1,020 bases of DNA from a phage: the sequence record MT912505.1. One strand, 5' to 3'. Below are positions 1 through 1,020 of this stretch, in pieces. Numbering within the stretch: position 1 is the first letter of the stretch; every line of letters begins with the position of its first letter. A model generated the notes under the pieces. The model worked only from the letters and a program-made list of their open reading frames with translations, was not told the origin of the DNA and ran no database searches. The translations under genes were made by a program, and so were the position numbers.

Positions 1-1020
1 ATGTCTAAACGTAAACCTCGTAAACAGGTTGCTATGACTGCTTCTGCTCCTCAGAAAATGGAGGCTTTTACTTTTGGTGAGCCTGTTCCTGTTCTTGATA
101 AACGTGATATTCTTGATTATGTTGAGTGCATTTCTAATGGTAAATGGTATGAGCCTCCTGTTTCTTTTTCTGGTCTTGCTAAATCTCTTCGTTCTGCTGT
201 TCATCATTCTTCTCCTATTTATGTTAAACGTAATGTTCTTGCTTCTACTTATATTCCTCATCCTCTTCTTTCTCGTCAGGATTTTTCTCGTTTTGCTCTT
301 GATTATCTTGTTTTTGGTAATGCTTTTCTTGAGCAGCGTCATTCTGTTACTGGTCAGCTTATTAAACTTCTTGCTTCTCCTGCTAAATATACTCGTCGTG
401 GTGTTGATGATTCTGTTTTTTGGTTTGTTGAGAATTTTACTCTTCCTCATGAGTTTGCTCCTGATACTGTTTTTCATCTTCTTGAGCCTGATATTAATCA
501 GGAGATTTATGGTCTTCCTGAGTATCTTTCTGCTCTTAATTCTGCTTGGCTTAATGAGTCTGCTACTCTTTTTCGTCGTAAATATTATCAGAATGGTGCT
601 CATGCTGGTTATATTATGTATGTTACTGATCCTGCTCAGTCTGCTACTGATGTTGAGTCTCTTCGTGAGGCTATGCGTAATTCTAAAGGTCTTGGTAATT
701 TTAAAAATCTTTTTTTTTATGCTCCTAATGGTAAACCTGATGGTATTAAAATTGTTCCTCTTTCTGAGGTTGCTACTAAAGATGATTTTTTTAATATTAA
801 AAAAGCTTCTGCTGCTGATCTTATGGATGCTCATCGTGTTCCTTTTCAGCTTATGGGTGGTAAACCTGAGAATATTGGTTCTCTTGGTGATGTTGAGAAA
901 GTTGCTAAAGTTTTTGTTCGTAATGATCTTTCTCCTCTTCAGGATCGTTTTCGTGAGGTTAATGATTGGCTTGGTATGGAGGTTATTCGTTTTAAAGAGT
1001 ATACTCTTGATAATCCTGAG
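1..1020 (+). CDS. Partial CDS (3' end not in window), 340 codons; putative phage portal-vertex protein (P2 GpQ-like, tentative); encoded in artificial one-codon-per-amino-acid form
   Basis: Seen in sequence: ATG at 1-3 and frame 1 open for all 340 codons to the last base; frame 2 hits a stop at 35-37 (tga). Translation begins MSKRKPRKQVAMTASAPQKMEAFTFGEPVPVLDKRDILDYVECISNGKWYEPPVSF and ends EVIRFKEYTLDNPE. Product assignment rests on recalled similarity to P2-family portal proteins and a size of about 340 aa or more; no search was run. Confidence is for the ORF; the product call alone is about 0.45. Confidence 0.8.
   Translation, partial: MSKRKPRKQVAMTASAPQKMEAFTFGEPVPVLDKRDILDYVECISNGKWYEPPVSFSGLAKSLRSAVHHSSPIYVKRNVLASTYIPHPLLSRQDFSRFALDYLVFGNAFLEQRHSVTGQLIKLLASPAKYTRRGVDDSVFWFVENFTLPHEFAPDTVFHLLEPDINQEIYGLPEYLSALNSAWLNESATLFRRKYYQNGAHAGYIMYVTDPAQSATDVESLREAMRNSKGLGNFKNLFFYAPNGKPDGIKIVPLSEVATKDDFFNIKKASAADLMDAHRVPFQLMGGKPENIGSLGDVEKVAKVFVRNDLSPLQDRFREVNDWLGMEVIRFKEYTLDNPE

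Follow-up and report, generated by a model that had tools for sequence, protein, structure and literature searches.

A recoded, single-codon DNA sequence that encodes the portal protein of coliphage 186

The reading frame and its relatives

The window, as the whole stretch of 1,020 nucleotides analysed here is called, is occupied from end to end by one feature on the + strand, a recoded portal coding sequence (1..1020) of 340 codons that ends without a stop. Frame +1 begins with ATG and remains open on translation across bases 1-1020; when the window was shuffled 20,000 times by mononucleotides, the frame never stayed open. An automatic ORF listing of the window was empty, since it leaves out frames that extend past either end. 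In a tblastn search of 50,697 phage records, the best match was Escherichia phage 186 (U32222 / NC_001317), whose CDS 196..1218, annotated as "capsid portal protein; Orf2; P2 Q homolog", agrees with the window in 340/340 residues (100%). An exact-sequence look-up of the translation led to AAC34146.1, NP_052249.1 and UniRef100_Q37851 / Q37851 ("Capsid portal protein, Escherichia phage 186"). The natural 186 gene measures 1023 nt, that is, the window's 340 codons followed by TAA, and the window is thus the complete coding sequence minus its stop. Besides this identity, the assignment as a complete portal CDS draws on matches to profile HMMs and on single-codon usage, both described below.

In natural 186 DNA, the portal ATG overlaps an upstream TGA (ATGA) and is preceded by a GAGGTGG Shine-Dalgarno sequence, an arrangement that supports M1 as the start of the protein. 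Start annotation varies among members of at least 90% identity, with cluster lengths of 340, 344 or 348 aa, and in phages SEN1 and FSLSP004 the match begins only at residue 12 (Met).

The protein was placed by comparison with family profiles. The NCBIfam equivalog TIGR01540 (portal_PBSX) was matched with 248.9 bits (E 6.9e-74), above its curated cut-off of 166.05 bits, by residues 49-327 over model positions 1-316 of 320. Pfam PF04860 (Phage_portal) was matched by residues 86-324 with 45.9 bits (E 5.8e-12), against a gathering threshold of 39.1 bits, and phrog_68, described as "portal protein", by residues 1-338 (E 1.3e-170). The equivalog TIGR01537 (portal_HK97) gave 38.6 bits (E 6.6e-10), well below its curated cut-off of 112.05 bits. 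Because TIGR01540 was passed and TIGR01537 fell below its cut-off, the 186 portal is, as judged from its profile scores, a homologue of the HK97-type portals that lies outside the HK97 equivalog and belongs to the PBSX/P2 branch. Identity to members of the HK97 side is low, only 16-18% with HK97 gp3 (PDB 8cez / 8fql) and the RcGTA portal (PDB 6tba / 6te8), which represent the HK97 branch of PF04860.

P2 gpQ (NP_046757.1, 344 aa) shares 267/341 identical positions (78%, with 88% similarity) with the 186 portal in a full-length alignment spanning residues 1-337. Both are PBSX-type portals, and the difference of four residues in length falls in the basic N-terminal tail. The preliminary description of this DNA, made from the letters alone, had given the 340-residue string and had tentatively compared it with P2-like GpQ portals of the PBSX type; the translation of bases 1-1020 reproduces that string letter for letter, and the search of family profiles and of P2 gpQ, proposed there as a check, returned portal families and gpQ with significant scores and thus confirmed the comparison.

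Homologues of the 186 portal are numerous. At E <= 1e-5, 4,552 clusters were collected at 90% identity, with PF04860 present in 120/120 of the matches listed, and 1,209 clusters were collected at 50% identity and E <= 1e-3. The closest relatives found by tblastn were those of Erwinia phage EtG (99.1%) and Salmonella phage PSP3 (98.2%), followed by many P2-like phages of Salmonella, Yersinia and Klebsiella. Portal proteins also serve well as markers when P2/186-like prophages are to be called.

Several homologues are much longer than 340 aa and carry the portal-like part at one end only, namely P0004 (505 aa), P0128 (443 aa), P0160 (455 aa), P0172 (454 aa) and P0186 (590 aa), the last of which aligns its residues 481-587 to residues 232-338 of the query. 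These longer proteins may stem from fused genes, from frameshifts in gene calling or from artefacts of assembly.

Codon usage and the origin of the DNA

Throughout its 340 codons, the window uses one codon only per amino acid, so that all 32 leucines are written CTT, all 25 serines TCT and all 19 arginines CGT, and 81% of third positions are T. The natural 186 portal gene uses 2-6 codons for each of Leu, Ser and Arg. Of the degenerate amino acids for which phiX174 has one untied favourite, 17/17 are written in the window with the most frequent phiX174 codon, Cys being tied at 13:13 in that phage, and only 7/20 window codons are those preferred in the head genes of phage 186. The source of the codon table is thus phiX174-like, although another genome rich in third-position T may have supplied it.

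The same features bear on whether the DNA might be natural, as that of a 186-like phage not yet sampled whose codon bias is extreme. Such an origin would agree with the full-length alignment of the window to real 186-like portal genes at 72-74% identity, but it is exceedingly improbable in view of the strict use of one codon per amino acid in all 340 codons and of the pattern of divergence: 272/1020 bases differ from the 186 gene (73% DNA identity), 243 of them at third positions, and every difference is synonymous, leaving no amino acid changed. The GC content is 37%, against 57% in the natural gene. No match to the window was obtained by megablast in 5,426 complete E. coli genomes, 207 of which matched the natural 186 portal gene in the same kind of search, and the highest blastn identity to any phage record was 73.8%. 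A natural origin of the DNA was accordingly rejected.

A DNA so clearly artificial might instead encode a designed or engineered portal variant. Against this stands the identity of the amino acids, end to end, with the 1990s GenBank entry for phage 186 (AAC34146.1), with no substitution, tag or truncation other than the missing stop codon, and we consider a redesigned protein scarcely credible. The preliminary description had allowed for a divergent or designed variant; for the protein, which is identical to a natural sequence, this does not hold, but it was right in spirit for the DNA, a synthetic back-translation. The protein could also be some other component of the head or of the packaging machinery, for instance a subunit of the terminase or a "capsid packaging protein" in the generic sense, and some close relatives are indeed annotated as "capsid packaging protein" or "phage-related capsid packaging protein". 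Nothing was found that contradicts the portal assignment. Such a reading has a negligible probability, and it was rejected together with that of a designed protein.

Single-codon usage identifies the window as a back-translated sequence, whose biological information therefore resides in the protein only. It is almost certainly a computer back-translation, with one fixed codon per amino acid from a table of phiX174-frequent codons, of the portal protein of the temperate coliphage 186 (Peduoviridae, Eganvirus), a protein also known as Orf2, labelled W, and orthologous to P2 gpQ. The 186 portal protein is already catalogued, in GenBank and UniProt since the deposit of the phage 186 genome, and its family is well understood; its recovery here is not a discovery, and its biological weight is small.

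The antisense in-register frame of the window has no stop over all 1020 bases, and frame 2 of the + strand has one stop only. Both features follow mechanically from the codon table, which consists mostly of NNT codons and contains none of TTA, CTA and TCA. The absence of these three keeps the antisense frame open; in the natural 186 gene, four such codons occur and make four antisense stops. An overlapping antisense gene was considered and rejected, the open frame being a by-product of recoding. The low GC content, the abundance of T at third positions and the openness of the antisense frame are all artefacts without biological information, and single-codon sequences of this kind are to be read as protein only.

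Predicted fold and domain map

Remote structural homology emerged only with a sufficiently diverse alignment. Searches of the PDB sequences (2026) with the single protein or with a shallow profile returned no P2-family portal, and nothing at all even at E <= 10. The shallow profile came from an alignment (A1) of 36 close homologues of 77-96% identity; with it, hhalign assigned only 28% probability to a relation with HK97 gp3, and the AlphaFold model had a pLDDT of 46.5 and was discarded. A broader alignment (A2) of 58 sequences with 29-96% identity was assembled from representatives of the 50%-identity clusters. Its profile matched, among PDB entries, the HK97 portal 8cez (E 4.4e-10), the T5 portal 9ilp (1e-3) and the RcGTA portal (0.02), and hhalign gave 97.5% probability over 237 columns with HK97 gp3. 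AlphaFold (AF2) with this alignment produced a model with pLDDT 84.3 and pTM 0.80, and the best 50 PDB matches of that model in Foldseek were all portal proteins, so that the comparison with known portal folds, also proposed in the preliminary description, agreed with the profile searches.

The model displays a wing-stem-clip fold, in which an alpha/beta clip joins two long stem helices, with a tunnel loop and then a long wing helix after them. The canonical clip-stem-wing topology has been described for the portals of T4, SPP1, P22 and phi29 (PMC4493910). The domain map given below was derived from the predicted model and from remote homologues of 13-18% identity, and the roles attached to individual residues are to be taken in that light. 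Residues R132, Y170, G171, L184 and N198 are invariant across the 58 sequences of the broader alignment, and F191, G199, H201, D261, R279, G296, P312 and N321, as well as G203, are nearly so.

The N-terminal tail (aa 1-40; 1..120, + strand) is predicted to be flexible, and its basic tip, MSKRKPRKQ, belongs to a segment (aa 1-20) with a pI of 12. Mean pLDDT values for successive blocks of ten residues are 62, 63, 44 and 43, with aa 24-39 below 50, and the tail lies outside both the TIGR01540 match (aa 49-327) and the HK97 alignment. About 26 N-terminal residues are probably removed from P2 gpQ. By analogy with that protein, aa 1-40 probably correspond to a segment that is removed or disordered in the mature portal; the processing enzyme would be the scaffold/protease, gpO in P2 and V in 186. 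The first part of the wing domain would follow at aa ~41-173 (121..519, + strand), with helices at 56-62, 67-83 and 92-105 and then a beta-sheet at 107-161, and was aligned to HK97 residues ~104-195.

The putative stem helix 1 (aa 174-197; 520..591, + strand) is a helix of 24 residues, aligned to HK97 ~196-220, that ends in the family signature FRRKYYxNGAHxG. The predicted clip domain (aa 198-256; 592..768, + strand) lies between the two long helices and is composed of strands 204-208, 237-240 and 249-253 and of helix 215-227. In T4, the clip is made of one helix and three strands, bridges the two stem helices, and is the part to which the packaging ATPase and the neck attach (PMC4493910). By the same analogy, the 186 clip would be the expected docking surface for the terminase and then for the head-completion/adaptor protein. 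Stem helix 2, assigned to aa 257-278 (769..834, + strand) from the model, is a helix of 22 residues aligned to HK97 ~278-300.

The candidate tunnel-loop region (aa 279-297; 835..891, + strand) is modelled as a loop that contains one short helix (282-285) and connects stem helix 2 to the long wing helix, a position that agrees with the definition of the T4 tunnel loop as the segment linking the second stem helix to the bent helix of the wing (PMC4493910). The long kinked wing helix, placed at aa 298-324 (892..972, + strand), is made up of helices 298-317 and 319-324 and has pLDDT values of 95-98. After residue 324, a short C-terminal tail (aa 325-340; 973..1020, + strand) contains one short predicted strand.

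Most portals carry a crown domain C-terminal to the wing helix, which in phi29 is largely missing. The alignment with HK97 stops at HK97 residue ~342 of 424, from where HK97 gp3 runs 82 residues further and the 186 protein 16 at most; overall, the 186 portal is ~85 residues shorter than HK97 gp3 and seems to be without most of the crown. Because only about 16 residues follow the wing helix, compared with about 80 more in HK97 gp3, the model suggests that the crown of the 186/P2 portal may be vestigial or absent.

Gene neighbourhood and proposed role in packaging

The comparison of gene positions applies to the natural 186 genome, the window itself being without flanks. From the left end of that genome, the order is cos, the terminator tW, the portal gene, a 248-aa large-terminase-like ORF and the large terminase Orf12. 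Transcription of the portal/terminase operon and of the divergent V-T-R-Q operon is driven by two B-activated promoters, p12 and pV, the second of these operons encoding the scaffold (V), the major capsid protein (T), the small terminase (R) and the head-completion/adaptor protein (Q). The setting among head genes that had been anticipated for the portal, near large terminase, scaffold and capsid genes, is thus the one seen in 186. In both 186 and P2, the portal gene is the cos-proximal last gene of an operon that starts with the large terminase, and a terminator and cos follow it. In P2, portal gene Q abuts the large terminase gene P, whereas in 186 the 248-aa ORF is interposed. In the 509 phage records that matched, the neighbour of the portal is typically a large terminase.

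According to the account given in PMC7552001 of the work of Rishovd (1994 and 1998), P2 gpQ is an experimentally characterised dodecameric connector that occupies a single unique vertex. It enters procapsids along with gpN, the capsid protein, and gpO, the scaffold, and is cleaved during maturation, presumably by the protease domain of gpO (PMC7552001). In solved portals, the clip docks the packaging ATPase and later the neck, and the tunnel loops contact the DNA and help to retain it (PMC4493910). No direct experiment on the 186 portal was found in the literature searched, where the papers returned mention 186 in passing only.

A mechanism can be proposed for the 186 portal on the basis of its 78% identity to P2 gpQ and of the conserved portal fold. 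By analogy with the P2 connector, twelve copies of the protein would form a ring at one unique vertex of the capsid, and the ring would become part of the procapsid along with the major capsid protein (186 T) and the scaffold (186 V). At its exposed clip end, the portal would then dock the terminase, composed of the large subunit Orf12 and the small subunit R, which would pump cos-cut DNA through a central channel probably lined by the stem helices and the tunnel loops. Once packaging is completed, the same clip end would bind the head-completion/adaptor protein (186 Q, the homologue of P2 L) and the tail, and at infection the DNA would leave through the portal channel.

The 248-aa ORF (NC_001317 1215..1961) is located directly upstream of the natural portal gene, and its TGA is the one that overlaps the portal ATG. 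Its product is a stand-alone paralogue of the ATPase domain of the large terminase, matching Pfam Terminase_6N only and being 37% identical to Orf12 residues 125-371, and Walker-A-like and Walker-B-like motifs are visibly kept. In U32222 and NC_001317, the gene name W appears on both the portal CDS (196..1218) and the 248-aa CDS (1215..1961), which share one locus tag in RefSeq. The genetic name of the portal ORF is ambiguous because W has been given to both ORFs. If the paralogue were the essential W product, the portal might work with an extra ATPase-like subunit besides the canonical terminase, an idea that is speculative and, in our estimation, rather unlikely. A second and milder possibility, in keeping with the short C-terminal tail, would be a P2/186 portal of a minimal, almost crownless kind.

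As to its distribution, the 248-aa paralogue is present in 186, EtG, PSP3, Midge, SI22, SW9, BIS20 and 186-like E. coli prophages. It is missing from P2, and some Yersinia enterocolitica phages carry a form of it that is 46% identical.
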